64,000 nucleotides of DNA from an uncultured Methanoregulaceae archaeon. GTDB taxonomy: Archaea; Halobacteriota; Methanomicrobia; Methanomicrobiales; Methanospirillaceae. A program made the position numbers and the translations under genes. The stretch is from NCBI GenBank assembly GCA_963841015.1, contig CAWJAX010000003.1:736001-800000 (forward strand). The letters run 5' to 3'. This document shows positions 25,869 to 37,396 of this stretch, one piece after another (the stretch's first letter is position 1; the number at the start of each line of letters is the position of its first letter). The notes under the pieces were generated by a model. That model saw only the letters and a list, made by a program, of their open reading frames with translations, was not told the DNA's origin and ran no database searches.

Positions 25869-26904
25869 TCAGATAAAGAACCTGAAGGTAACCCAGGCAA
25901 TAATCACCATTATAGCGGAATACTTCAGCCCTGCAATAAGTCGCCCTTCCCCCATCTGGCCGGCAACAAGTCCTGAGAAGAATCCCTGGAGCAGTGCCGC
26001 ATGGGTGAATAACCGTTTGTAGAGAAAAAGGTCCACCATTCCCATGAACCCACGGGCACCAGCTGCTGATGCTGATGCACCGGCGGTAGCCATTGTGGTC
26101 AGGAATGTTGATACCAGAATTGCAATGACAAACAGGAAAACGGCAAATGAAACGAGCACGATAATCACATAGATCAGCATGTTGTTGCTTCGTTCCTGAG
26201 CAAGGTTTACAACTTCGAAGGTATCTTTCGCTGCCGCCCGAAGCACCTCACTGATATCCCCGCCGGCTTTGCTTGCTTTTGCTATCAGGTCAACACTCCG
26301 GTCAGCAAGCGGAGTGCCGAGCTCTTTTCCGAAACGGTACATTGCTTCAACAAAGCCGGCACCCCATGACATATCCTGATCGAGCTTCCTGATATGGGGG
26401 GTAAGCGTCGAATACTCCGCACCGGCTGACAATGTGCACAGCATTTGGCAGGGTCATGCCGGAATCGTTCATGCCCGCAAGATCCCGGAAGAAATTCGGG
26501 AGGGCATTTTCCAGGTTCTTTACACGCCGTTGTTCTTTAAAGTCAAGGATCGCTACCGGAATAATCGCAACCAGAACTGCAAGAACCAGAAAATCATCAA
26601 TAATTGTTGAGGTAAAAAGGACCTGGATCCCGTATGACATCACCATCGACACAAAACCACCGATGAAAATGATAATGGCGAGGGGTATGGTGACGATGAA
26701 TATGTTGACGGGTTTTTCTGTAAGCACCCTGAAAGGGTGTTTTAGGAATTTTCCCAATCCTTCCCGGGTCTGTCGATCACGCTCAAGATTCCTGGTGATC
26801 TCATCGAGTTCGGGTTCGATTGCACTCAGTTCGGCTGATTTGAGCGGAGTCGGGGTTTCACTTCCACGGTTGAAGATATTTCTGAAGGTTTCTTTGACGT
26901 TCAT
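25869..26904 (-). CDS. Type II secretion F-family (PilC/TadC/FlaJ-like) membrane platform protein (frameshift near 26430)
   Basis: LPNFFRDLAGMNDSGMTL joins AEYSTL...KASKAGGDISEVL...GQMGEG across one extra base. Confidence 0.88.
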
Positions 26905-26905
26905 T

Positions 26906-27829
26906 TCAGGTCTCCGGAGTCATGGAACTGATCATTACAACGAACGCAATACTGCCTAACGGGATCATGACATAAATGACCATATAGAGAAACATCGGAT
27001 TGTTGTCGCCATTGAGCACCGACATGATTGACTGGAGAATAATCAGAAACAGCGTTCCTGCAACCATGGCGGTCACATAGGACTCAGAGACGAGTGCCAG
27101 GGTTTCCAGGAACATTTTCTGTGTCTGCCGGTTTTCGAGTGCATACTGCTCGGCTTTTGTCCGGAAATAATCAGTGATGTTACCACCACTCGCAACACTT
27201 GCCATTGTTCCCTGTAAAAATTCCTTCATGCGCCTGCTTGGAGTACTTGCCGATACAAGGCGGAGGGAATCGATCAGGTCCCTGCCAAAAATATCAATCT
27301 CACGCGCAATATAACGGGCCTCCACTGCACTCTCACCATATATCTTGCTTCCGCCAAGGAGCCGGAACACTTCTGCCGGGGTTATACCCGCAGTGGACAT
27401 CGAAGTGATGTAGTTAATCGCATACGGCAGGGTCGCATCAATATTCCTGCGACGGTTCCCTGCTTCAAGACCAGGATACAGGATAAATGCAAGGTAGGTA
27501 AGTCCGCCGAACACCAGAAGTGAGAAGATTGTTATAACGACGGTTCCGATAATAAGAGTATATGGTGAAAGTCCCAGAACTACCTCAGGCACCTCTCCCT
27601 TGTATTGAATGAGATTGGGAACTTGTAAAATCCAGCTGATGATGCCAATTACAAATGCCATCAAGAACCCGACAATAATTGCAGAGACGTATGCTGTGGA
27701 GAGATAGACTTCAAACGGAGTCCTGAACCGTGCAGAGACCAGGTCGTTTCTGAGAGCCGCATAGTCATCCCTTTTTGCCTTCATCCGTTTACCAAGGAGG
27801 TTGAAACAGAATCGCTCATAACTATTCAT
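26906..27829 (-). CDS. Type II secretion F-family (PilC/TadC/FlaJ-like) membrane platform protein
   Basis: IDATLPYAINY, IFGRDLIDSL, TPSRRMKEFL and SGG motifs; TM helices. Confidence 0.92.
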   Translation of the reverse strand: MNSYERFCFNLLGKRMKAKRDDYAALRNDLVSARFRTPFEVYLSTAYVSAIIVGFLMAFVIGIISWILQVPNLIQYKGEVPEVVLGLSPYTLIIGTVVITIFSLLVFGGLTYLAFILYPGLEAGNRRRNIDATLPYAINYITSMSTAGITPAEVFRLLGGSKIYGESAVEARYIAREIDIFGRDLIDSLRLVSASTPSRRMKEFLQGTMASVASGGNITDYFRTKAEQYALENRQTQKMFLETLALVSESYVTAMVAGTLFLIILQSIMSVLNGDNNPMFLYMVIYVMIPLGSIAFVVMISSMTPET

Positions 27830-30233
27830 AAAGGTCCTTCCTCACTTTTTCGATAACTGCTTCGGGATCACGATGATAGGAGATAAGGATCTTAGCAACA
27901 TCCTTGTAATGCCGGATCTTCTTGATCCGCATCCATTCAAGCACTTCCTGGCGACGCTTTAACTCCTCGCGCATCCGGTTCTCGCTCCACCCTTTCGCCT
28001 CCATGATCTCTTCGAGAAGATAGGACTTTCCTGAGTAGGTGATCTCATCGGTCGCTGAGCGCCACTTAAAGACCTCGTTGGTGATAAGTTCGTTGGTCCT
28101 TGGATCTATATCCAGGATCTCAACAATCTGCTTGTTCCTCCTGATACGTTTACCTCCAACCCGTCCCTGTACCTGGACACAGATAAAATCAAGCGCAGAA
28201 AGCATGTTCCGGGGGACATCCATAGGAGGGTTCTCGATACGGTGGACGACACTTGCCACTGAATCTGCGTGGGTTGTAGAGTAGGTGGTGTGACCGGTGC
28301 TCATTGCCTGGAAGAGGGTCTGGCATTCTTTGCCACGTACTTCTCCCACGAGGATGTATTCTGGACGCTGTCGCATCGCAGCCCGCAGAAGCTCGTACAT
28401 ATTAATCTCACCCCTGCCGGATGTGTCGAACGAATCGCGGGTAACACTGGGGATCCAGTTCGGGTGAGGGAGCTTCAGTTCGCGGGTATCTTCCAGGGAT
28501 ACTATCTTTGACAACGGGGGAATAAACAAAGAAATGGCATTGAGAGCCGTGGTTTTTCCGGATGCAGTTCCACCGGCAAAAATCGCAGATTTGCCATTTT
28601 CAACGCACAGCCAGATATATGCAATCGAAAGCGGAGCGAAAGTACGCCATTCAATAAGATCGGTCGGGGTAATCGGCTCATCCTTGAATTTACGGATGGT
28701 GAAGGTGGAACCGTGTGCAGTTACTTCCTGGCCAAGTGTCATCTGGATACGCGAACCGTCCTGCATAGTTGAGTCAAGAATGGGCTGTGCGATTGAGATG
28801 TATTTTCCCGATCGCTGGGCAAGCTTGGTAACAAACGAGTCAAGATCCTCAGCATTGGTATAGCTGAGGGTAGTCTTCATCGACTCGTAGTTGGCATGAT
28901 ATACAAAGAGTGAAGTATGGACTCCATCACAGGAGATATCCTCAATATATTTATCATGCATTATCGCATCGATAAGCCCGTCCCCAAGGAATTCCTTGTG
29001 CATGTTGTAGAGGATAACCTCACGCTGCACGGGGGTAAGCTTGATACCAAAATCAAGAATAACATCGGTCGCGGCAGCCCGCAACTTTATTCCGGCTTCC
29101 TCTTTAGAGATATCTTTTGTGTTGATATCGAGTGTTTCAAAAAGCCGTTCCTTCAACTCTTTTAACAGCTCTTTCTCCGGATCAGTCAGGATGGGTTCGA
29201 GCACCAGGTAGGTGTACTCATGAGTAGTGTGATCATAGATAATCTGGATGTAAGCGTAGGGGGGATTGACCGGATAAATCTCAACTTCTTCAATACCTGG
29301 CTGAGCCCTGAAGGAGATATCAACCAGGGGACCATGTTTCTTGGGATCATATTCTTCAAGCGTTGAATGAACCGCTTTGAAAAGTGTGCGCAGCCCGAAT
29401 CTTTTTTGTTCAGCCTTGGGTTTTTTCGTGTCAATTCCAATGTCTGACCCAATGTCGAGATCCTTAAAACCAGCGGTGGAGAAGTTTTTCTTCCAGATCT
29501 CATCAAAATCCGGGGGCAGTGTTCCCGTACCTTCAAATGCACTGATACGACCGTGGAGTTTGAGTTCATCTATCTTAAAGGATACACCCTTGGGAAGGAT
29601 AAGACCGGAGATATCGGAGATCTGGTCAACATTGATAATTTTCTGATCGGCATCAGTTACCTGCTCGACTGCTGCCTCCGGTGATGACGTAACTTTTTTT
29701 ATGGATTTTGCCCTGACGGCTGCCTTGGGGTCTTCATCAATTATCTCGATCACGGTATCTTCTTTGATTTTTTTGTTGCCGGGAGGTGAACCGGGGGGCT
29801 GGCTGGTTCCGCTGTTTGCCAATAATACACCCAGGGACTCCCTGACATCAGATCTGCCAATAACATCACCAGGTTCGGCAGGAGGTTTTTGTGGCTGCTC
29901 AACGGATTGACGGGTTTTTTCCTGCAGATCATCTGCATCGGAAAACTCAAGATCGTTCTGAACCGGTATGGATGCTCGCGTGCGTACAGGTTCTGCGGGT
30001 TGCCTGACAGGAAGGGCAGGCCCCTCATTGTTTGACGCTTCCATCTTTTTTCGGAGAGCATCGAAATCACCAATTTGAGAGGTAGATCTATCACCAGCTG
30101 TGGGGGTTTGAAGGAGATCTGCAGTTTCTTTAGGTTTCTGCACTACCTCATTTTTTTTGTCTCCTTTGATCTTACTGATAAGGAAATCTACATTATCCAG
30201 TGCATCATCATCATCATTATTCAATCCAGACAT
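27822..30233 (-). CDS. Type IV pilus/archaellum-type assembly ATPase (PilB/FlaI family) with long N-terminal extension
   Basis: EDISCDG, FTIRKF, Walker A GGTASGKTT, RQRPEYILVGEVRG and TGH...THA motifs. Confidence 0.94.
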   Translation of the reverse strand: MSGLNNDDDDALDNVDFLISKIKGDKKNEVVQKPKETADLLQTPTAGDRSTSQIGDFDALRKKMEASNNEGPALPVRQPAEPVRTRASIPVQNDLEFSDADDLQEKTRQSVEQPQKPPAEPGDVIGRSDVRESLGVLLANSGTSQPPGSPPGNKKIKEDTVIEIIDEDPKAAVRAKSIKKVTSSPEAAVEQVTDADQKIINVDQISDISGLILPKGVSFKIDELKLHGRISAFEGTGTLPPDFDEIWKKNFSTAGFKDLDIGSDIGIDTKKPKAEQKRFGLRTLFKAVHSTLEEYDPKKHGPLVDISFRAQPGIEEVEIYPVNPPYAYIQIIYDHTTHEYTYLVLEPILTDPEKELLKELKERLFETLDINTKDISKEEAGIKLRAAATDVILDFGIKLTPVQREVILYNMHKEFLGDGLIDAIMHDKYIEDISCDGVHTSLFVYHANYESMKTTLSYTNAEDLDSFVTKLAQRSGKYISIAQPILDSTMQDGSRIQMTLGQEVTAHGSTFTIRKFKDEPITPTDLIEWRTFAPLSIAYIWLCVENGKSAIFAGGTASGKTTALNAISLFIPPLSKIVSLEDTRELKLPHPNWIPSVTRDSFDTSGRGEINMYELLRAAMRQRPEYILVGEVRGKECQTLFQAMSTGHTTYSTTHADSVASVVHRIENPPMDVPRNMLSALDFICVQVQGRVGGKRIRRNKQIVEILDIDPRTNELITNEVFKWRSATDEITYSGKSYLLEEIMEAKGWSENRMREELKRRQEVLEWMRIKKIRHYKDVAKILISYHRDPEAVIEKVRKDLYE

Positions 30234-30376
30234 CACCCTTTAACCCAGATTTAGGCGTCATTTTTTATTAATTTATTTTTTTTACATTTAATACTATATA
30301 AAATGTTGCTATTGTCATTGTAAACATTCTGAACGATTTTTATTAAAAAAATCATTTCAACACGTGAATAATCCAA

Positions 30377-31108
30377 TTATTCACCGGAAATCTCTGACTG
30401 AATATTTTTTAAAACCACGCGTATCAGTCCAAGATGTGCATCTGCGGTGGTAAAAACACACAGGAATAGATCCCCGCAGGGGGCTACAATAAATTTGTTC
30501 TCATTCGTTTCAAGGATCATCTGATCAAGGGAACCGATGTTCAGGTCCCGGGCAATTTTGGCCCCTGCCCGCACAAGATCTTCAGCAGAGGCTGCAACAT
30601 GCTCAAAGTCCACATCACCTATACATTGGATGGAAAAACCTTCGAAAACTGCAGCAACTGCAATAACCCCGGCAAGATTTTTTATCTTTTTTAATGTGTT
30701 CTCATCGAGAATCTCGGAGATTTCTGAAATATCATCAGTCTTGTCATCGGGATCGTCAGAATCCAAAAGGGGGACACTCTCGTTAATGACAAGGCCTTCT
30801 TCAACGCAAAGCTGAACAGCACGGGTGAATTCTGCCTCGGTGTATTTTCTGATATTGAATGTCTGCGGGGAATCAAAGCTGCCGGTTGATTCCATAACCA
30901 TGTGTAAAAGAGCAGACTTTCCCCGAAAAAATCCTTCACTATCTTTAAAATATGCACCTACCATCTTCCCATTGTCATTGAGAATAAAACCATGACCGGA
31001 TAGTGTTTCTGCCTCCACTAAACCACGGAAGGTCAACAGATACTGGCGCAACCCTTCCTTGTGTGGATTGGTAATTATTCCCTCAACAGTTCCTGCGGGT
31101 AATCTCAT
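30377..31108 (-). CDS. DUF2226-like N-terminal domain fused to a roadblock/LC7 domain
   Basis: Starts MRLPAGT; C-terminal LAGVIAVAAVFEG...IGSLDQMILE...AHLGLIR is a roadblock pattern. Confidence 0.75.
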   Translation of the reverse strand: MRLPAGTVEGIITNPHKEGLRQYLLTFRGLVEAETLSGHGFILNDNGKMVGAYFKDSEGFFRGKSALLHMVMESTGSFDSPQTFNIRKYTEAEFTRAVQLCVEEGLVINESVPLLDSDDPDDKTDDISEISEILDENTLKKIKNLAGVIAVAAVFEGFSIQCIGDVDFEHVAASAEDLVRAGAKIARDLNIGSLDQMILETNENKFIVAPCGDLFLCVFTTADAHLGLIRVVLKNIQSEISGE

Positions 31109-31125
31109 AAAATGAGGACGGGAAA

Positions 31126-31473
31126 TCAGAGTGCAGCGATAAGCCGTTCCTTATTCTTCTTTAATTCGTATCTGATTCTTCCAATGTTGGCGGTAGTATC
31201 TGCAACTATGGCGATCAGTTCATCGGCGGAAAGCGGGGAGAGAATGATGGGGCCTTTCTCAAGTTCAACGAGCATTTGGGATAGTTCGCCTTTTCCCAGC
31301 GTAATTCCCATCGCTTCAGAGGTTCCAAGACCAGTTGAAGCCATAGCACCCAGTGCTTCAATATCCACTTTACCGGAAACCGCACTTTCAATTACAAATC
31401 CATCTCTTCCTATCACGACCGCAGCTGATACCCCTTCAATTTTGAGAAATTCCTCTAATAATGGCTTCAGCAT
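31126..31473 (-). CDS. Roadblock/LC7 (MglB-like) domain protein
   Basis: IEGVSAAVVIGRDGFVIES...GELSQMLVELEKG...ANIGRIRYEL. Confidence 0.92.
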   Translation of the reverse strand: MLKPLLEEFLKIEGVSAAVVIGRDGFVIESAVSGKVDIEALGAMASTGLGTSEAMGITLGKGELSQMLVELEKGPIILSPLSADELIAIVADTTANIGRIRYELKKNKERLIAAL

Positions 31474-31716
31474 TCACTTTTCCTCAGATAAATGTTTCTC
31501 TCTTGTTTTTTTTCTATTAAAATGTTGGTCTTTCTTTTTCTTTTAACAGGAAAGAGAGATAATTGCACAAAAATGAAAAAAAAAAGCTTTTTTTCCGATC
31601 TCATAATGCGGAACCCTCCGATTTCTTTGAATATCAGAGTATTTTATAATCGCGCACTTTCTATCAATCAGTAACAAAGGAAACTATATTGTAGGATATC
31701 GCAACAATACAACATA

Positions 31717-32484
31717 ATGCAACTCCCGAGGGGAACATTCCTCAACATTAAAAGGAGCACAAAGGTTGGGGATCTTCTTGCTGAACTCCAGGACATGAAA
31801 TTCAGCGGGATCTGTAGTATCTCTTCTGGGCAGGCCATCGGGACAGTTGTTTTTAAATCCGGAAAACGCATTCTCGCGCAGTACAAGGATATTATCGGCG
31901 ATGCTGCATCGGAAGAACTACAAAAAATTATGGGGGAGAAAGTGGATGCTTCTCTTTCCACGCTTAACGAAGCTCAGATTCAGCTGGCCCTTGAATTCAA
32001 TAAAACATGCCTGATTATTAAAGGCGGAAAAGCAGAAAATATTTCACCCCATGAAATCCCTGTACCCATTCAGCATACGATAAAAAAATCCGTTCTGACT
32101 CCACCAAAACAGGGACAGATATTAACGAGTAAAACCCCCGAGAAACCAGGTCTACCACAAACAACCACCGCAAAGAAACCAGTTACCGTCGAACCAGTGC
32201 GTGCTTCAGAGCTACCAAAGATAATCAGTGACGCACATCTGAAAAAAGCAGCCCATAACCCACTGGCAGCAATCCAGCAAAAATCACAGGTTTATCCCCA
32301 AATATCGGAGGAAAAAAAATCTGAAGATACGGCCTTTCTCCAGGAAGATTCAGATGCCAGCAGCTTTGAAAAGGATATTGAGACCTTTGAGACCATGGAT
32401 GTAGATAGCATCACCAACAAAATCCGCGGTGAATGTAAGACCTTAATCAAACAACTTCACCTTGAACATCTGACAGAGGACTAA
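31717..32484 (+). CDS. DUF2226-like protein with Pro/Thr/Lys linker and helical C-terminus
   Basis: Starts MQLPRGT; FSGICSI..G.VVFKSGK..LAQY; QIQLALEFN; low-complexity middle. Confidence 0.65.
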   Translation: MQLPRGTFLNIKRSTKVGDLLAELQDMKFSGICSISSGQAIGTVVFKSGKRILAQYKDIIGDAASEELQKIMGEKVDASLSTLNEAQIQLALEFNKTCLIIKGGKAENISPHEIPVPIQHTIKKSVLTPPKQGQILTSKTPEKPGLPQTTTAKKPVTVEPVRASELPKIISDAHLKKAAHNPLAAIQQKSQVYPQISEEKKSEDTAFLQEDSDASSFEKDIETFETMDVDSITNKIRGECKTLIKQLHLEHLTED

Positions 32485-32785
32485 TAAGGATAAGCAGGGG
32501 AGTGATATTCAAGGGGATTGTTGCAGCCCTGAACAGACAATACTAAAATTTTACGAGATCAGACATCGATTTACCAGGTATCTTGCAAAGAACCATAAAA
32601 ATTTCGGGCTGTTTTCTGGAGTGTACCTGATATAAAATTCAAAATCCGGTATCAAAGGTTTTTTTTAAAAGAGAATCGCAACAGTTACACAAGCAATAAT
32701 AATCTTGTGAGTTTAGTTGAATAATCAGAAAAATTGGGTAATCTTATATAAATCAAATAGAAATATTCACACAACAGGGTGTTCA

Positions 32786-33574
32786 ATGGTTAAGGTTTAC
32801 ACAATCGCATCCGGAAAAGGTGGGACGGGAAAGACAACCGTTTCTGTTAATCTCGGAACGATGCTTGCCCAACTCGGAAAAGAGACCTTTCTTATGGATG
32901 CTGATATCGGTATGGCAAATGTTGGACTGCTCCTCGGTCTGCAGGATGCACCGGTCACCCTCCATGAAGTTCTTGCTGGAAAGGCCAATGTCAATGATGC
33001 TATTTATGAGTGCCCGGCGGGATTAAAAGTGATTCCAGCGGGCATCTCCCTCCAGGGTTTCCAGGCTGCAGATCCGGAAAAGATCCGCGATGTCATGAAT
33101 GAGATTGTCACACGGTGCGACTTTTTGTTGATTGACGCCCCTGCCGGGATCAGCAAGGATGGTATCGTCCCTCTTGCTGTTGCCGATGAAGTTATCCTTG
33201 TCGTAAATCCTGAACTCTCGTCTATCGTTGACGCCCTCAAGACACGGATCCTGACAGAACTCGTCGGGGGTCACGTATTAGGCTCAATTATAAATCGCGT
33301 CGATCTGGAAAAACCAGAGACCATGATAAAAAAGATGGAGAAAGTGCTCGGGGTAAAGGTAATCGGAATTATCCCCGAAGATCCCAATGTCCGTCGTGCA
33401 GGTTCTGCAAGAACTCCCCTCGTGATCAAGTATCCGACATCCCCTGCATCTAAAGCTTTTCGCCGAATTGGTTCTTCCCTTATTGGTGTTGCTTACAAAG
33501 ATGATGGGGCCGGGGAGCAGAAAGAAAAATTCATTGAAAGATTTACCAAAGCCCTTTTTTCAAAAAAATCATAA
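32786..33574 (+). CDS. minD: Archaeal MinD-family ATPase
   Basis: Deviant Walker A SGKGGTGKTT, DADIGMAN, IDAPAG and IPED motifs; C-terminal amphipathic KFIERFTKALF. Confidence 0.93.
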   Translation: MVKVYTIASGKGGTGKTTVSVNLGTMLAQLGKETFLMDADIGMANVGLLLGLQDAPVTLHEVLAGKANVNDAIYECPAGLKVIPAGISLQGFQAADPEKIRDVMNEIVTRCDFLLIDAPAGISKDGIVPLAVADEVILVVNPELSSIVDALKTRILTELVGGHVLGSIINRVDLEKPETMIKKMEKVLGVKVIGIIPEDPNVRRAGSARTPLVIKYPTSPASKAFRRIGSSLIGVAYKDDGAGEQKEKFIERFTKALFSKKS

Positions 33575-33840
33575 ATGCAGCAGAGATTTAACGATTTCTG
33601 CTCATTAATTTTTACTGTTTTTCTCATGCAAAAACAGGAGACTTTGGAGGATTAGGGGCCAATAGACCATTCCTGATTCATGACAGATTCCTTCCCCCGT
33701 TTGGTGACCTTTGATTAAAAAAAAGCTGAAAAATATGCACCCGGATGTGCATGAAAACCTGCGCGAGGTTAATTCTTTAGCAGCATCACAGGAAGAATTG
33801 AAGAAAAAATGGAATATGTCCAGGTACATTCACAGAAGGT

Positions 33841-35025
33841 TTATTCAGGTTTATTGGTTATGGTGAAAACACAATATTCGTCACCTTTTGACCGGCACTT
33901 AACTTCACGACCCTGCACCTTTATTCCAAACGATCCTTCAACTATCCCTGCAAGGAGACCTGCTGTACAGTAACAGACATTTTTTCCGGTATTCCCAAAA
34001 GCTTCTGATTCAATAGTATGTTCAAGGGTGATGGTTTTTTCTTTCTTTGCTTCGTTCCATTCCATACTGATGATCTTGAACCAGCCCATCTGGGAAAAAA
34101 ATGCAAACGCCATATCAGAGAGGAGGTTTGGCCTGGTTATTCCCATTTTCTTATAGTGCTCAACATTTTCCCTGCCCATATCCATATAGGCACGATAGTT
34201 GACTCCACCGGCAGGCATCTCACCCATGGTCTTTTTTAATGAATTCATCATGGAGGTGAAGATAAAACGTGGCATAATAACGACTGGATCATCAATCAGC
34301 TTGATCCTTCCTTCAAGAGGTTTATGCTCGAAATATTCCGTAATGGCGGAATCACCTTTAACGATAGCCTCTGCCTTCCATTTCCAGCTGGATTCCCGTT
34401 GATCGGCAACAAATTCACAAAAATCATCACCGTTTGCATGGCACTTTATTTCGATGCAGAACCAGTTCTTACCCGTTACAGCGATCAGGACCCCCTCAAT
34501 CCACCCTCTGTGGATACCACAGACTGGCATCTTCCAGTCCTTAAGAACGTCAGATTCAAAGGTTTGTTTGGTCCGAAGTACAATCCTTGTATCGCTGGAT
34601 TCAACGAGTTCAAAAGGAGCACCCCAGCCCTGCTGGTGCTGGAGCTGGAAAACCAGCATAAGAAATTCTGCGGGTGTGAGATCCATACCAAACTTTTTTA
34701 GCAGGTTATTTAGTCCTACCGAACCCTTACCAACGGAGTGGAAGAGCTTGCGAACCGCCTGTACTGCAAGTTTTTTATCGAGATTTGCTTCATACATCTC
34801 GTAGATGGCTTTCACGAGATAGTTCGGGTTGCTTGCTGTTTTTACTCCAAAAACCGAATACGAACCGGCTAGAGGGTCCATCTCGATATACGGGGCGATA
34901 CTTTTCTCCCCTTTGATGAGCGCCTCGAAGTCTTCACGTCCGATCTTCATGGATGACAAATCTGTTATTATCTGATTAAAGGATTTCGTCTTTTTTTTAT
35001 AAAAAATTCTGTCATGAATGGCCAA
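33841..35025 (-). CDS. Protein with two V4R domains
   Basis: GWG...PVCGIHRGWIEG...EIKCHANGDDFCEF and MGW...CYCTAGLLAG...EVKCRSKGDEYCVF. Confidence 0.85.
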   Translation of the reverse strand: MAIHDRIFYKKKTKSFNQIITDLSSMKIGREDFEALIKGEKSIAPYIEMDPLAGSYSVFGVKTASNPNYLVKAIYEMYEANLDKKLAVQAVRKLFHSVGKGSVGLNNLLKKFGMDLTPAEFLMLVFQLQHQQGWGAPFELVESSDTRIVLRTKQTFESDVLKDWKMPVCGIHRGWIEGVLIAVTGKNWFCIEIKCHANGDDFCEFVADQRESSWKWKAEAIVKGDSAITEYFEHKPLEGRIKLIDDPVVIMPRFIFTSMMNSLKKTMGEMPAGGVNYRAYMDMGRENVEHYKKMGITRPNLLSDMAFAFFSQMGWFKIISMEWNEAKKEKTITLEHTIESEAFGNTGKNVCYCTAGLLAGIVEGSFGIKVQGREVKCRSKGDEYCVFTITNKPE

Positions 35026-35054
35026 TTCAAAAAGGAAGAAAGGATTGAAGTGAA

Positions 35055-36029
35055 TTAAATTTCCAGGAGATTTTTTGCATTAAGATCCAGCAGAATTTTT
35101 GGGTGTGATACATCAAACGATATATAAAACGTGGTAATATTCTGGGAGCGATCCATGACAATGCAACTGTATTTCCCATGTGCCAATTTAAAACTGACAG
35201 TTCCTTCATCTGTGGTTATATCGTTGCCATAAATTCTGCCCTCACTACGGATTGATACACTGAGACCATTTTGAGGAATGGAGTCTCTTTTTATGGTAAG
35301 CGTGAGAACTCCCATACCTTCACTTTTTTTACCGATCTCCGGTATCAAAGACGGAAGGCTCTTTTTCAGGTGCATCTTTTCAAAAATACGCGACCCCATG
35401 ACTACAGCATCAACAATATCCGGTTTCACATCATAGAACTCGAATTTTTCGTTTCCTGAAATCATCATTACCGCTTTATCACTGTACAGAGATCCCTTAT
35501 CATCGATGTAGATAGCACCTTCAGCCTCACCATCGATAAATGCAAGATAATTTTCCCTTTCGTTTACTTTTGCCACAGCTATCCCGTTGGATCTTCGTGA
35601 TGAGGTTACATCGAACAGTTCATGAAGGGTAAATATTCCGATGTATTTTGAGCCTTTTACGATATTATCCAGCAGATCATGAATCACACTGGGGATGCTC
35701 TTTTTTAAGTGTGTCTTTTCAAAAATCCGGCACCGCATGACAATAGTCTCAATAATATCCGGTGTTATTTCATAGAACTCGAATTGTTCGTGACCGGAGA
35801 TCATCTTCGCTGCCTTATCACTGTATTCTGTTCCCTTGTCATCGATATAGATAGCGCCTTCGGCTTCACCGGCAAGAAAAGCAAGATAATATTCCCTTCC
35901 GTTCTCTTTTGCTACCGCAATTCCGTTGAAACCCCGGGATGAGGCAAACTGGAAGAGTTCATGAAGGGTAAAAGTCCCCAGATGCTTTGAGCCCTTGTGG
36001 ATATTTTTTATCAGATCCTGTATTTTCAT
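35055..36029 (-). CDS. Hypothetical protein: tandemly duplicated ~113-aa DUF2226-like domain plus C-terminal beta-sandwich (carboxypeptidase-regulatory/prealbumin-like)
   Basis: Two copies of KGSK..G.FTLHELF...NGIAVAK...YLAF..GEAEGAIYIDDKG..YSDKA; C-terminal TTDEGTVSFKL..GKY. Confidence 0.75.
   Translation of the reverse strand: MKIQDLIKNIHKGSKHLGTFTLHELFQFASSRGFNGIAVAKENGREYYLAFLAGEAEGAIYIDDKGTEYSDKAAKMISGHEQFEFYEITPDIIETIVMRCRIFEKTHLKKSIPSVIHDLLDNIVKGSKYIGIFTLHELFDVTSSRRSNGIAVAKVNERENYLAFIDGEAEGAIYIDDKGSLYSDKAVMMISGNEKFEFYDVKPDIVDAVVMGSRIFEKMHLKKSLPSLIPEIGKKSEGMGVLTLTIKRDSIPQNGLSVSIRSEGRIYGNDITTDEGTVSFKLAHGKYSCIVMDRSQNITTFYISFDVSHPKILLDLNAKNLLEI
35343..36020. repeat. Intragenic tandem duplication, 339-bp period
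   Basis: GTTCATGAAGGGTA at 35618 and 35957; TTTGAGCC at 35647 and 35986. Confidence 0.92.
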
Positions 36030-36204
36030 CAAAACTCATCTCAATGGGAGTACTACCTGCCAAGAAAATTACACGAACTTTTTCCCTAGATATATGGTTG
36101 AGTTATTTGCAACATGTGTATTTTACATTTGCGGAACTATCTTTTCTTTTTCGCACACTATCGCCATGCATAAGTGTTCATAAAAAAAATGATATTTTTG
36201 ATTT

Positions 36205-37396
36205 ATGGAAATACTCTACCCAATGGTTATTTCAGCGGTGGCGGTAATTGCCACCCTGATTTATGCATCATATCTCGATTTAAAGGACCGTCGGGTTCCG
36301 TTTATTTACTGGTTACCGATGCTCGGAGTGGGCATTATCTGTACCGGGTACCTCCTGTGGCAGACAACGGCAAACCTCAGCCTGATTCTCGGCTACCTTT
36401 CCCTTGTCGCAAGTTTTCTCTTTGTGGACTACCTTGATAACCGGGGCAGGACAGACTCCCCGGGTCTCACGTTTTATTACAAAAAGAACTCAATTTTTTA
36501 TTATCTTGCCCTTGTCTTGATCCTCCCGGTTTTGTCATGGTTTGTCCTTGCACCATCCATCAATAACCAGCTGATCCCGTGGTACGCGATGTTTGCCGGT
36601 ATTTTTTCCTATATTTCGTATGGGGAATACAAGGGGATTTCTGATGAAAATACCCGGCAAAAACACCGGAAAAAGGAGCCGAATATCTCAGAGTCTTTCA
36701 ACCGTTGGTATTTCGTACCGGTTGTGATGATATTTGCGATAACAGCTGTAATCATGCTCATCAGTCCGGATGGCTGGGGAACTCAATCTTTCGTAATTCT
36801 GCTCATGGCAGTCTTTTCCGGGATTTTCTATATTTTTGCACGAATGCACCTGTTCGGAGGTGCCGACGCATGGGCGCTGATATTTATCTCATTCTGCCTG
36901 CCAACGTTCCCGTTCACACCACTTCTCGGTAACCCGCCACTTGGATTCCTGTCCTTCTCGGTTCTTATCAATGCCCTGCTCCTGAACCTAGCGGCACCGA
37001 TCGGAATCTTCATAACAAATATTATCCGGAAAAACCGGGCTCCGCTGATGTATATGTTCTTTGGTTTCCCGGTAAAAGGCGAAAAAATACAGAATGAATG
37101 GGGTTTTGTGATGGAGGATTTTGAAGAGAGTAAAGGAATCGTCAGCAGGAAATTTGTCGGCTTTTGGGATTCCATAAAGCGTATGTACAGCGGTGAAGGC
37201 AGGATATACACAAAGGATCTTCGGGAGCATCCTGAAGATTACCAAAAAGAACTGTCGCTCTACAGGAAAGCAGGAACCGTATGGATTTCATATGCTGTAC
37301 CATTCATCATCCCCATTACAGACCGGTTTGATTATTGCAATCATCTTTGGTGATCTTCTCTTCGCATTTATGGAAATAATTGCAGGAGCGATATAA
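36205..37396 (+). CDS. A24 prepilin/prearchaellin peptidase (PibD/FlaK-like), frameshift near 37321
   Basis: [11 protein letters not shown] and FGGAD catalytic aspartates; [14 protein letters not shown] continues as [11 protein letters not shown] in another frame. Confidence 0.9.

Follow-up and report, generated by a model that had tools for sequence, protein, structure and literature searches.

The PatA-type regulators of the cyanobacterium Synechocystis (PixE, PixG and LsiR) contain a PATAN domain, the family DUF4388 (PF14332) of Pfam; in PixE this domain binds the PilB1 and PilC N-terminal domains and suffices to reverse phototaxis, and homologues of MglA and MglB are often encoded near bacterial PATAN genes (bioRxiv 10.1101/2021.06.11.447907). 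In archaea, FleN/MinD (arCOG00589) and a Roadblock protein (arCOG02603) are often encoded in type IV pilus loci, and clade 2 systems frequently possess a pair of tadC genes, with pilins encoded apart also being described for them (Makarova et al., 2016; PMC4858521); a survey of 2026 mentions MinD for systems 2 and 4G, and the words 'roadblock' and 'V4R' do not occur in its main text (PMC13705601). Here we describe a locus at positions 25869–37396 of a 64,000 nt stretch of DNA (the window) from an uncultured Methanoregulaceae archaeon (assembly GCA_963841015.1, contig CAWJAX010000003.1, positions 736,001–800,000), in which genes for two PilC-type platform proteins and a PilB-type ATPase on the left and for a class III signal (prepilin) peptidase on the right enclose genes for two Roadblock proteins (one of them fused to a PATAN-like domain), two further PATAN-like proteins, MinD and a double V4R protein.

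The locus resembles the PatA-type systems of Synechocystis in that a PATAN-family domain is encoded together with PilB and PilC and Roadblock (MglB-like) genes lie nearby, but its host is an archaeon, a REC domain is lacking, and the PATAN-like domain, which scores below the PF14332 threshold, occurs either by itself or in fusion with a Roadblock domain or a transthyretin-like sandwich; its docking on PilB is in this case a proposal. With the MglA/MglB (and RomR-RomX) system of Myxococcus xanthus it shares Roadblock proteins that accompany type IV pilus machinery and a proposed spatial control of PilB, whereas it holds no MglA-type GTPase, its neighbouring NTPase is MinD, of the SIMIBI class, and one of its Roadblock domains is fused to a PATAN-like domain. 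As in the archaeal MinD systems associated with type IV filaments, a MinD with the motif KGGTGKT and a putatively amphipathic C-terminal motif is encoded beside a filament machine, although the Roadblock and PATAN-like partners proposed here are not described there. The pilus genes themselves are like those of euryarchaeal clade 2 or system 2 pili, such as PilB3-PilC3 of Haloferax volcanii, in the long N-terminal extension of PilB, the two tadC genes and the pilins encoded elsewhere. The TRAPP and Ragulator cores of eukaryotes likewise combine a V4R-like fold (Bet3/TRAPPC3) with longin/Roadblock subunits, as V4R and Roadblock folds are here encoded beside an NTPase, but the locus has neither a Rab nor a Rag GTPase, its V4R gene is limited to Methanoregulaceae-type loci, and the likeness is one of gene content.

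The first-pass annotation of the window remarked that such genes had been noted near archaeal pili before, and this is borne out by the orthologous locus of M. boonei in the supplement of Makarova et al. (2016), which has the same order as the window, the two being matched by order and gene lengths and not by sequence. The order given there is CobQ-SUI1-TadC-TadC-(TadC)-FlaI-arCOG02605-arCOG02603-arCOG09603-arCOG03412-FleN-(REC/PAS)-arCOG01688-arCOG09604-A24-HisI, and the names given are 'surface protein' for arCOG09604, 'uncharacterized' for arCOG09603, 'Roadblock/LC7' for arCOG02605 and, for arCOG03412, a membrane protein of the 'Roadblock/LC7 family' (PMC4858521). By contrast, we propose a kinship to PATAN/DUF2226 and a role in the cytoplasm, and neither an arCOG03412-like membrane gene nor a REC/PAS gene was found at the locus of the window genome. 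The M. boonei locus was thus catalogued in 2016 without a link to PATAN, although other tables of that supplement may bear on novelty.

We propose that the locus encodes the central machinery for assembling a euryarchaeal type IV pilus, equipped with PATAN adaptors and a MinD/Roadblock switch, a proposal whose chances of being right or wrong seem to us about evenly balanced. Gene identities, domain homologies and the conservation of gene order were established directly, and every physical interaction and direction of control given below is one that we infer. Evidence that ties a PATAN-like protein to the pilus motor comes from the gene that we call PATbeta (35055–36032, minus strand, 325 aa). 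A homologue is present in 41 of the 41 genomes of a Methanomicrobiales sample; 20 of these loci were fetched, 16 of them from five other families (f2–f6), and in all 16 the gene is the immediate upstream neighbour of pilB, in the same orientation. The start of the longest pilB ORF (open reading frame) in these loci ranges from 124 nt ahead of the PATbeta stop codon to 19 nt beyond it, with an overlap of 4 nt in four loci and of 8 nt in three, and all six families share the block CobQ/SUI1-PilC2-PilC1-PilB-PATbeta-A24-HisI. PATbeta is a constant operon partner of pilB throughout Methanomicrobiales.

The first-pass annotation called PATbeta a tandem DUF2226-like protein, which is right as to its two N-domains (67 % identical to each other) and leaves out a C-terminal domain. 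A model of residues 117–325 (predicted local distance difference test score, pLDDT, 87.7) contains a seven-stranded sandwich that aligns with 3e8v over 77 residues (VIA Z 11.6, root mean square deviation 2.0 (rmsd)), with many similar rows and with agreement from Foldseek, and the C-domain is accordingly modelled as a transthyretin/CarboxypepD_reg-like beta-sandwich. Among 28 relatives, CarboxypepD_reg is matched at E≤0.1 in seven and DUF4388 at E≤0.1 in only two. Most relatives are proteins of about 205 aa in which the N-domain is single; it is duplicated in 5 of 24 genomes of the same genus and in many metagenome proteins. The translation of PATbeta shows no evident signal peptide and no evident membrane segment, and we therefore read it as a cytoplasmic protein.

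The relationship of the three accessory proteins to PATAN was assessed at the level of profiles, for which alignments of the N-terminal ~110 residues of each family were compared by hhalign. The N-domains of the PATAN-Robl family (a PATAN/DUF2226-like N-domain followed by a Roadblock domain) match those of the family of the stand-alone 255 aa PATAN-like protein with 80 % probability (E-value 1.3e-5) and those of the PATbeta family with 91.5 % probability (E-value 8.6e-7); the PATbeta N-domains match that of the 255 aa protein weakly when compared alone (8 % probability, E-value 0.004), so that these two are connected via the PATAN-Robl family. A profile made from 33 such N-domains, searched against 1.84 billion proteins, found 525 cluster representatives at E≤1e-3. 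In a Pfam scan of the best 148 of these 525, Robl_LC7 was matched in 11, DUF4388 in seven (best E-value 9e-9), DUF2226 in six (best 4e-26), CarboxypepD_reg in two, REC in one and TIR in one, the DUF2226 and DUF4388 matches lying mostly inside the stretch matched by the profile or in an adjoining repeat. An orthologue of PATAN-Robl from another family matches both DUF2226 (residues 17–113, E-value 2e-6) and Robl_LC7 (residues 135–221), and because of this the 243 aa protein of the window is classed, by homology, as a DUF2226-type protein as a whole; for the 255 aa protein the nearest Atlas cluster is DUF2226 (score 0.90). The N-domains of the window are on this profile-level homology assigned as kin of PATAN and DUF2226, and the earlier label 'DUF2226-like', which does not hold at Pfam thresholds, is upheld by hhalign and the 33-domain profile search.

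A model of one PATAN-like domain (window 30779–31108) has a pLDDT of 90.9 and a predicted template modelling score (pTM) of 0.82. None of 48,161 chains reached Z≥5 in a comparison of this model with VIA (wide), the best being 4bt2 (Z 4.7, rmsd 3.0, 76 aligned), Foldseek gave no match in the PDB at E≤1e-3, and a profile of the domain found chance-level matches only among PDB sequences (best E-value 0.021, to TBP); an experimental structure of the fold seems not to be available. A full-text search of one literature library found no paper on DUF2226, and no paper among those listed there joins the PATAN domain with archaea or roadblock. We note that some PATbeta relatives of 363–364 aa (P0091, P0092, P0099, P0102 and P0105) have TIR domains in precomputed Pfam matches and that one PATAN-like protein (P0251) ends in a TIR_2 domain, a TIR fusion being unexpected for an adaptor domain linked to PilB.

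The second line of evidence is a module of four genes. These encode PATAN-Robl (30377–31108, minus strand, 243 aa, with Robl_LC7 at residues 135–218, E-value 4.5e-9), the stand-alone Roadblock/LC7 protein Robl (31126–31473, minus strand, 115 aa, Robl_LC7 E-value 1.7e-14), the PATAN-like protein of 255 aa (31717–32484, plus strand), which consists of an N-domain (residues ~1–110) and a low-complexity tail and matches no Pfam family above threshold, and MinD (32786–33574, plus strand, 262 aa). Genome records were scanned with a Roadblock alignment, and the window proteins were mapped on the best 80 of 137 related loci, a set skewed to Methanoregula in which 78 of the 80 titles name Methanomicrobiales taxa. 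Robl was found in 80 of them, PATAN-Robl in 79 (in each case adjoining Robl), PATAN in 71, MinD in 67, PilB in 66 (less than 10 kb from Robl), PilC1 in 61, PATbeta in 58, A24 in 55 and V4R in 47; of the 14 loci without PilB, six end within 1.8 kb downstream and eight have at least 3.2 kb of downstream sequence. The order HisI-A24-PATbeta-V4R-MinD-PATAN-Robl-PATANRobl-PilB-PilC1-PilC2 recurs in dozens of Methanoregulaceae records, and the arrangement in the window is therefore not due to chance. In families f2 and f3, Robl, PATAN-Robl, PATAN, MinD, PATbeta, PilB, PilC1 and PilC2 are all co-directional and lie downstream of a NiFe-hydrogenase operon, and in f6 a weak Robl match alone was found in one of three genomes. 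Robl itself is 74–94 % identical across three Methanomicrobiales families. An extra, arCOG03412-like gene between PATAN and MinD, for a protein of about 190–214 aa with one membrane segment (for example L001:6001–6645), is present in 50 of the 80 loci, and some relatives have a REC/PAS gene between MinD and V4R; the arCOG03412-like gene has been lost from the sub-clade of the window.

The four genes form a conserved unit that is older than, and separate from, its link with pilB. The first-pass annotation had treated the roadblock, DUF2226 and MinD genes as one unit, and the gene order of relatives agrees with this; it had also placed them within the pilus machinery, which is true of Methanoregulaceae-type genomes and fails in other families. 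The module adjoins PilB in only part of the order, in Methanoregulaceae and two other families; elsewhere it is either some 1 Mb distant or next to a hydrogenase operon. In a sample of the phylum, DUF2226 is found in 14 of 151 genomes (11 of 24 in family f8 and 3 of 10 in f14). Eleven loci around these matches were fetched and five of them scanned by Pfam; in four of the five (L136, L139, L140 and L141) the DUF2226 gene is immediately preceded by a Roadblock gene, and in L141 MinD is present too. The f14 locus L142 reads hydrogenase-Robl-PATAN-Robl-PATAN-x-MinD, and by tblastn a second f14 locus (L143) has the same order of Robl, PATAN-Robl and MinD. From this recurrence without PilB in two families outside Methanomicrobiales it follows that the association of Roadblock with DUF2226 (and MinD) is older and wider than its link with pilB.

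The orthologues of MinD all begin at the methionine of the ATG at 32786, which is probably the start of the gene, the longest ORF starting at a TTG at 32717. Besides CbiA, ParA and MipZ matches, its best solved relative is MinD-1 of Archaeoglobus fulgidus (1HYQ, E-value 4e-73), with further MinD, FleN and FlhG entries from archaea and bacteria ranking next. The Walker A motif KGGTGKT and a C-terminal motif GF[IV][DE]R..(x)LF are found in the window protein and in nine further ones of the 11 sequences printed, the tail of the L141 protein being different. The C-terminal motif, which we take to resemble the tail of MinD from Escherichia coli, presumably forms an amphipathic membrane-targeting helix. 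Searches of the genome (94 % complete) turned up neither MinC nor MinE (PF03775, PF03776), so that this MinD appears to be without its bacterial partners.

In the mechanism that we envisage, PATAN-like domains would dock on the N-terminal region of PilB, on cytoplasmic PilC or on both, as the PatA-type regulators of cyanobacteria do, and because PATAN domains bind PilB1 and PilC there, adaptors that dock on PilB are the likeliest reading of these proteins. Robl and PATAN-Robl would dimerise via their Roadblock domains and thereby set the nucleotide state of an NTPase, for which the candidates are MinD and the single, unlinked small GTPase of the genome. Membrane-bound MinD-ATP would mark the sites at which the PATAN proteins, and hence PilB, are recruited or released, its C-terminal GF[IV][DE]R..LF motif supplying both the membrane and the spatial cue, and in Methanoregulaceae only, the V4R protein may bring in a small-molecule or redox signal. 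The older four-gene module would, together with the V4R gene, have come to lie between pilB and PATbeta in this family. A functional tie of the module to the pilus motor, as the first-pass annotation had supposed, is plausible given the binding of PATAN to PilB1 and PilC in Synechocystis and the operon coupling of a PATAN-like gene to PilB across the order.

A number of observations weigh against this proposal. The window proteins themselves score below the Pfam thresholds for DUF2226 (E-value 0.057, over residues 29–71 of the 243 aa PATAN-Robl) and for DUF4388 (E-values 0.067, for the 255 aa protein, and 0.076; 13–14 bits). A predicted complex of the PilB core (residues 275–804) with PATbeta scored 0.46 (runs of 0.46, 0.25 and 0.55, which share at least 88 % of contacts, with a partner pLDDT of at least 80), the best of three controls scoring 0.00; 116 of 157 solved complexes passed the mark used, compared with 2 of 215 mismatched pairs, and at scores of 0.60 or less, as in the present case, it was passed by only 18 of the 157 but by both of these mismatches, so that the prediction supports the proposed contact weakly. 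No pilin gene with a class III signal peptide lies in the window, the four PF07790 matches of the genome all being elsewhere. PilB is not within 10 kb of Robl in eight loci that have enough sequence, seven of which are from Methanoculleus or other Methanomicrobiaceae; in f4 and f5 the module lies about 1 Mb from pilB in the order PATAN-MinD-(3.4 kb)-Robl-PATAN-Robl, and none of the 11 phylum loci with DUF2226 showed a PilB in its vicinity. The housekeeping flanks (CobQ, SUI1 and HisI) are equally syntenic, so that the conservation of gene order within this one order of archaea partly reflects descent. Lastly, the genome has no other close MinD (its further matches are 24–27 % identical), and this sole copy shares the genome with archaellum and Che loci (archaellins, an ArlI-like ATPase and CheA/CheW, on the same contig ~340–380 kb upstream), from which it follows that MinD need not be specific to the pilus. 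In the main rival explanation, MinD, Roadblock, PATAN-Roadblock and PATAN would make up a switch that positions cargo throughout the cell, such as the archaellum or chemosensory arrays, and would be next to the pilus genes by descent, with only PATbeta belonging to the pilus machine. The syntenic flanks, the sole close MinD and the archaellum and Che loci fit this reading, as does the unit being kept away from PilB in f4, f5, the Methanoculleus-type loci and two other families, and for H. volcanii a role of MinD in positioning the archaellum is reported (PMC13705601). We nevertheless consider a general switch somewhat unlikely, as the PATAN-like domain is common to the module proteins and the PilB-coupled PATbeta, Robl to PilC2 are a run of eight co-directional genes in f2 and f3, Robl and PATAN-Robl belong in the window to the same gene string as PilB, and the PATAN domain of cyanobacteria binds PilB1 and PilC.

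The choice of NTPase and the hydrogenase neighbours give rise to further alternatives. Roadblock proteins are known regulators of GTPases, MglB being the GTPase-activating protein of MglA (PMC9481161), and the supplement of Makarova et al. (2016) places an arCOG02603 Roadblock gene next to an 'Srp102' GTPase in one pilus neighbourhood of a Methanobacterium (PMC4858521); both Roadblocks of the window might in the same way regulate, in trans, the one small GTPase of the genome, a P-loop protein of 170 aa (C5:456037–456549) with GTP_EFTU, ATP_bind_1, Ras, Roc and Arf matches, with MinD working in parallel and not as their target. This GTPase, which contains the sole PF00071 match of the genome (C5:456058–456423; none lies in the window), is a possible partner, but its gene is on another contig directly after an ORF of 731 aa that is EF-2-like as judged from its N-terminal sequence, no Roadblock gene is nearby, and the NTPase that stays beside the Robl and PATAN genes in several families is MinD, for which reasons we regard such an arrangement as quite improbable. 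Robl begins a few bases after the large-subunit gene of a NiFe hydrogenase in several families, which also tells against a dedicated pilus function and raises the question of whether the module serves that enzyme, in its assembly, its placement or H2-dependent signalling, the pilus neighbourhood being without functional meaning. The series ferredoxin-(184–188 aa protein)-small subunit-large subunit-Robl-PATAN-Robl is indeed found in f2 and f3, in Methanoculleus-type loci and in L142, and a hydrogenase gene lies upstream of MinD-Robl-DUF2226 in L141; the window genome, however, keeps the module without a close copy of the hydrogenase (best identity 26 %), no such operon is present at the locus in Methanoregulaceae-type records, and a hydrogenase function is in our judgement very improbable. 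The pilus proposal with its MinD/Roadblock switch is put at no better than an even balance because pilB is unlinked in several lineages, the hydrogenase is a neighbour, the flanks are syntenic and MinD is the sole one of the genome. A more specific form of it, which we think unlikely, is a GTPase-independent polarity switch in archaea and some bacteria, in which a Roadblock dimer (one partner a PATAN/DUF2226 fusion) would take the part of MinE or MglB and set the ATP state of a membrane-binding MinD, the PATAN output would dock on PilB, and a Zn-binding double V4R protein of the Bet3 fold would feed in a signal in Methanoregulaceae.

The V4R protein (33841–34950, minus strand; 369 aa from the ATG at 34950, where its orthologues start, the longest ORF reaching 35025) matches V4R in two stretches (E-value 6e-28) and has four cysteines in each half of its translation; no match to it was found among PDB sequences. 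V4R and Bet3 are related (PMC2253512), and a four-Cys Zn site and ligand cavities are described for V4R/TRAPPC3 (PMC10933270). The gene is present in 21 of 24 genomes of the same genus and in none of 16 genomes of other families by protein search, and among the 80 Roadblock loci it is found solely in Methanoregula- and Methanolinea-type records, a distribution that also counts against the proposed mechanism. It is a lineage-specific addition, and a response to a ligand, which the first-pass annotation had put at the centre of the system, therefore cannot be the core mechanism. In six genomes of the same genus (G007, G008, G011, G013, G014 and G021) about 440 bp interrupt the V4R match after residue ~297; in four of the six there is one open frame of 557–572 aa, which may hold an extra inserted domain. 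The 184–188 aa protein of the hydrogenase operon was considered as a V4R relative, but the kinship was not established (BLASTP E-values of 0.001–0.05, an ATC_hydrolase match of E-value 0.0018 and an hhalign probability of 2.6 %). This operon of four genes (ferredoxin, the 184–188 aa protein, small and large subunit) stands before Robl in L004, L005, L007, L008, L010, L102, L106 and L142.

The remaining genes of the locus encode the pilus machine proper, and the locus holds three of the four components looked for in an archaeal type IV filament system: a T2SSE ATPase with a Walker A motif, a T2SSF/TadC platform protein and an A24 peptidase, the fourth being the pilin that is absent from the window. 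PilB (27822–30236, minus strand, 804 aa; T2SSE E-value 2e-29, PilB3_C E-value 5.5e-7) has the Walker A sequence GGTASGKTT. Its N-terminal ~270 residues are variable and of low complexity, and the conserved core begins at residue ~275; the core alignment has a mean column identity of 79 %, and relatives can be aligned only from residue ~150–294 on. PilC1 (26906–27829, minus strand, 307 aa) is a TadC/T2SSF platform protein (T2SSF E-value 3e-13) whose orthologues are 62–80 % identical and occupy the same position in 19 of 20 loci. A second such protein, PilC2 (25869–26904, minus strand), is present in the assembly as two overlapping ORFs (26347–26904 and 25869–26444), of which the downstream one matches T2SSF (E-value 9e-12) and the upstream one corresponds to positions 1–27 of the profile. 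The class III signal peptidase of family A24 (36205–37393, plus strand; the ORF as assembled ends at 37353) matches Arc_PepC_II (E-value 1e-18) and reaches 25.4 bits for Peptidase_A24, just below the Pfam cut-off of 26.5; the catalytic Asp residues are presumably those within the motifs DLKDRRVP and GGAD, both of which are contained in its translation.

Robl, PATAN-Robl, PilB, PilC1 and PilC2 are co-directional, separated in turn by gaps of 17 and 140 nt, an 8 nt overlap and a 1 nt gap, and the genes for the 255 aa PATAN-like protein and MinD are divergent from this string; the V4R gene is convergent with MinD, PATbeta lies 29 nt upstream of the V4R gene's longest ORF, and A24, then HisI, diverge from PATbeta. 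Flanking housekeeping genes encode CobQ, SUI1, HisI, a ferredoxin, a SIS protein, an aminotransferase and an M42 peptidase. By the names of its homologues the window belongs to a Methanoregula-type methanogen within the Methanomicrobiales. All of the genes named in the first-pass annotation (two PilC-like, PilB, the roadblocks, DUF2226-like, MinD, V4R and A24) were recovered at their positions from ORFs and Pfam matches, and its count of two PilC-like genes stands, although the leftmost of these extends to 26904 and is split by an extra base. This base lies near 26428; PilC2 is a single ORF of 345–347 aa in four of five close relatives, the fifth having a different indel, and the base is lacking in five of the five public contigs that cover the site (runs X1, X2 and X15). 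A similar one-base insertion near 37322, at the 3′ end of the A24 gene, shifts the last ~25 residues to another frame: in relatives the C-terminal 25–27 residues correspond to frame 2 of the window as far as ~37393, a stretch that overlaps the beginning of HisI; the ORF of a 97 %-identical relative is unbroken at 396 aa, and the extra base is lacking in all four public runs. As both insertions are private to this assembly, they suggest assembly errors and not decay of the system, a true strain difference being possible. Public RNA-library contigs (X15 and X16, from one study) cover parts of most genes and bridge the PilC2-PilC1 and PilC1-PilB junctions; since contigs cannot prove a transcript and the libraries may hold DNA, they are not counted as evidence of expression, and no reading is drawn from stretches without cover, such as 30077–30483 in X15.

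The first-pass annotation saw no pilin, archaellin, Che gene or small GTPase, which is correct for the locus, whereas all of them are present elsewhere in the genome. With a small GTPase encoded elsewhere, its suggestion that MinD is used in place of a Ras-like GTPase is one possibility among others. Four T2SSE ATPases are encoded in all. A second pilus locus (C4:51099–63452) has a PilB (an ORF of 411 aa), a fused PilC of 643 aa, two KaiC-like ATPases, a DUF7504 protein and three pilin-like genes, one with a malectin domain. A paralogous trio (C2:60261–62293) encodes a membrane HAMP protein of 141 aa, a Roadblock protein of 115 aa and a protein of 372 aa with a PATAN-like N-domain and a Roadblock-like C-end, with a HTH/PAS protein of 678 aa on the opposite strand; HAMP proteins also flank the Robl-DUF2226 pairs of another family (L136 and L139).

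What we regard as new is the proposed PATAN/DUF2226 identity of three accessory proteins, the PilB-coupled one included, the mechanistic link that this would provide to known bacterial control of PilB, and a picture in which the module is the older element, taken up into the pilus locus in Methanoregulaceae. The PATAN-like domain is itself a target for structure determination, since it has a confident model and no solved structural relative. For the control of where and when archaea assemble type IV pili, and for archaeal MinD proteins, which are not known to have partners, the locus offers concrete candidates, namely PATbeta, which is operon-coupled to PilB across an order of methanogens, and the conserved module of Roadblock, PATAN-Roadblock, PATAN and MinD. 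If the proposed mechanism is true, control of PilB by PATAN would span both prokaryotic domains, and Roadblock proteins would work with a MinD-type ATPase in place of a small GTPase. Should the GTPase-independent switch prove true as well, the Methanoregulaceae would possess a prokaryotic assembly of V4R and Roadblock, with parts like those of TRAPP or Ragulator, whose target is a SIMIBI ATPase and not a Ras-like GTPase.

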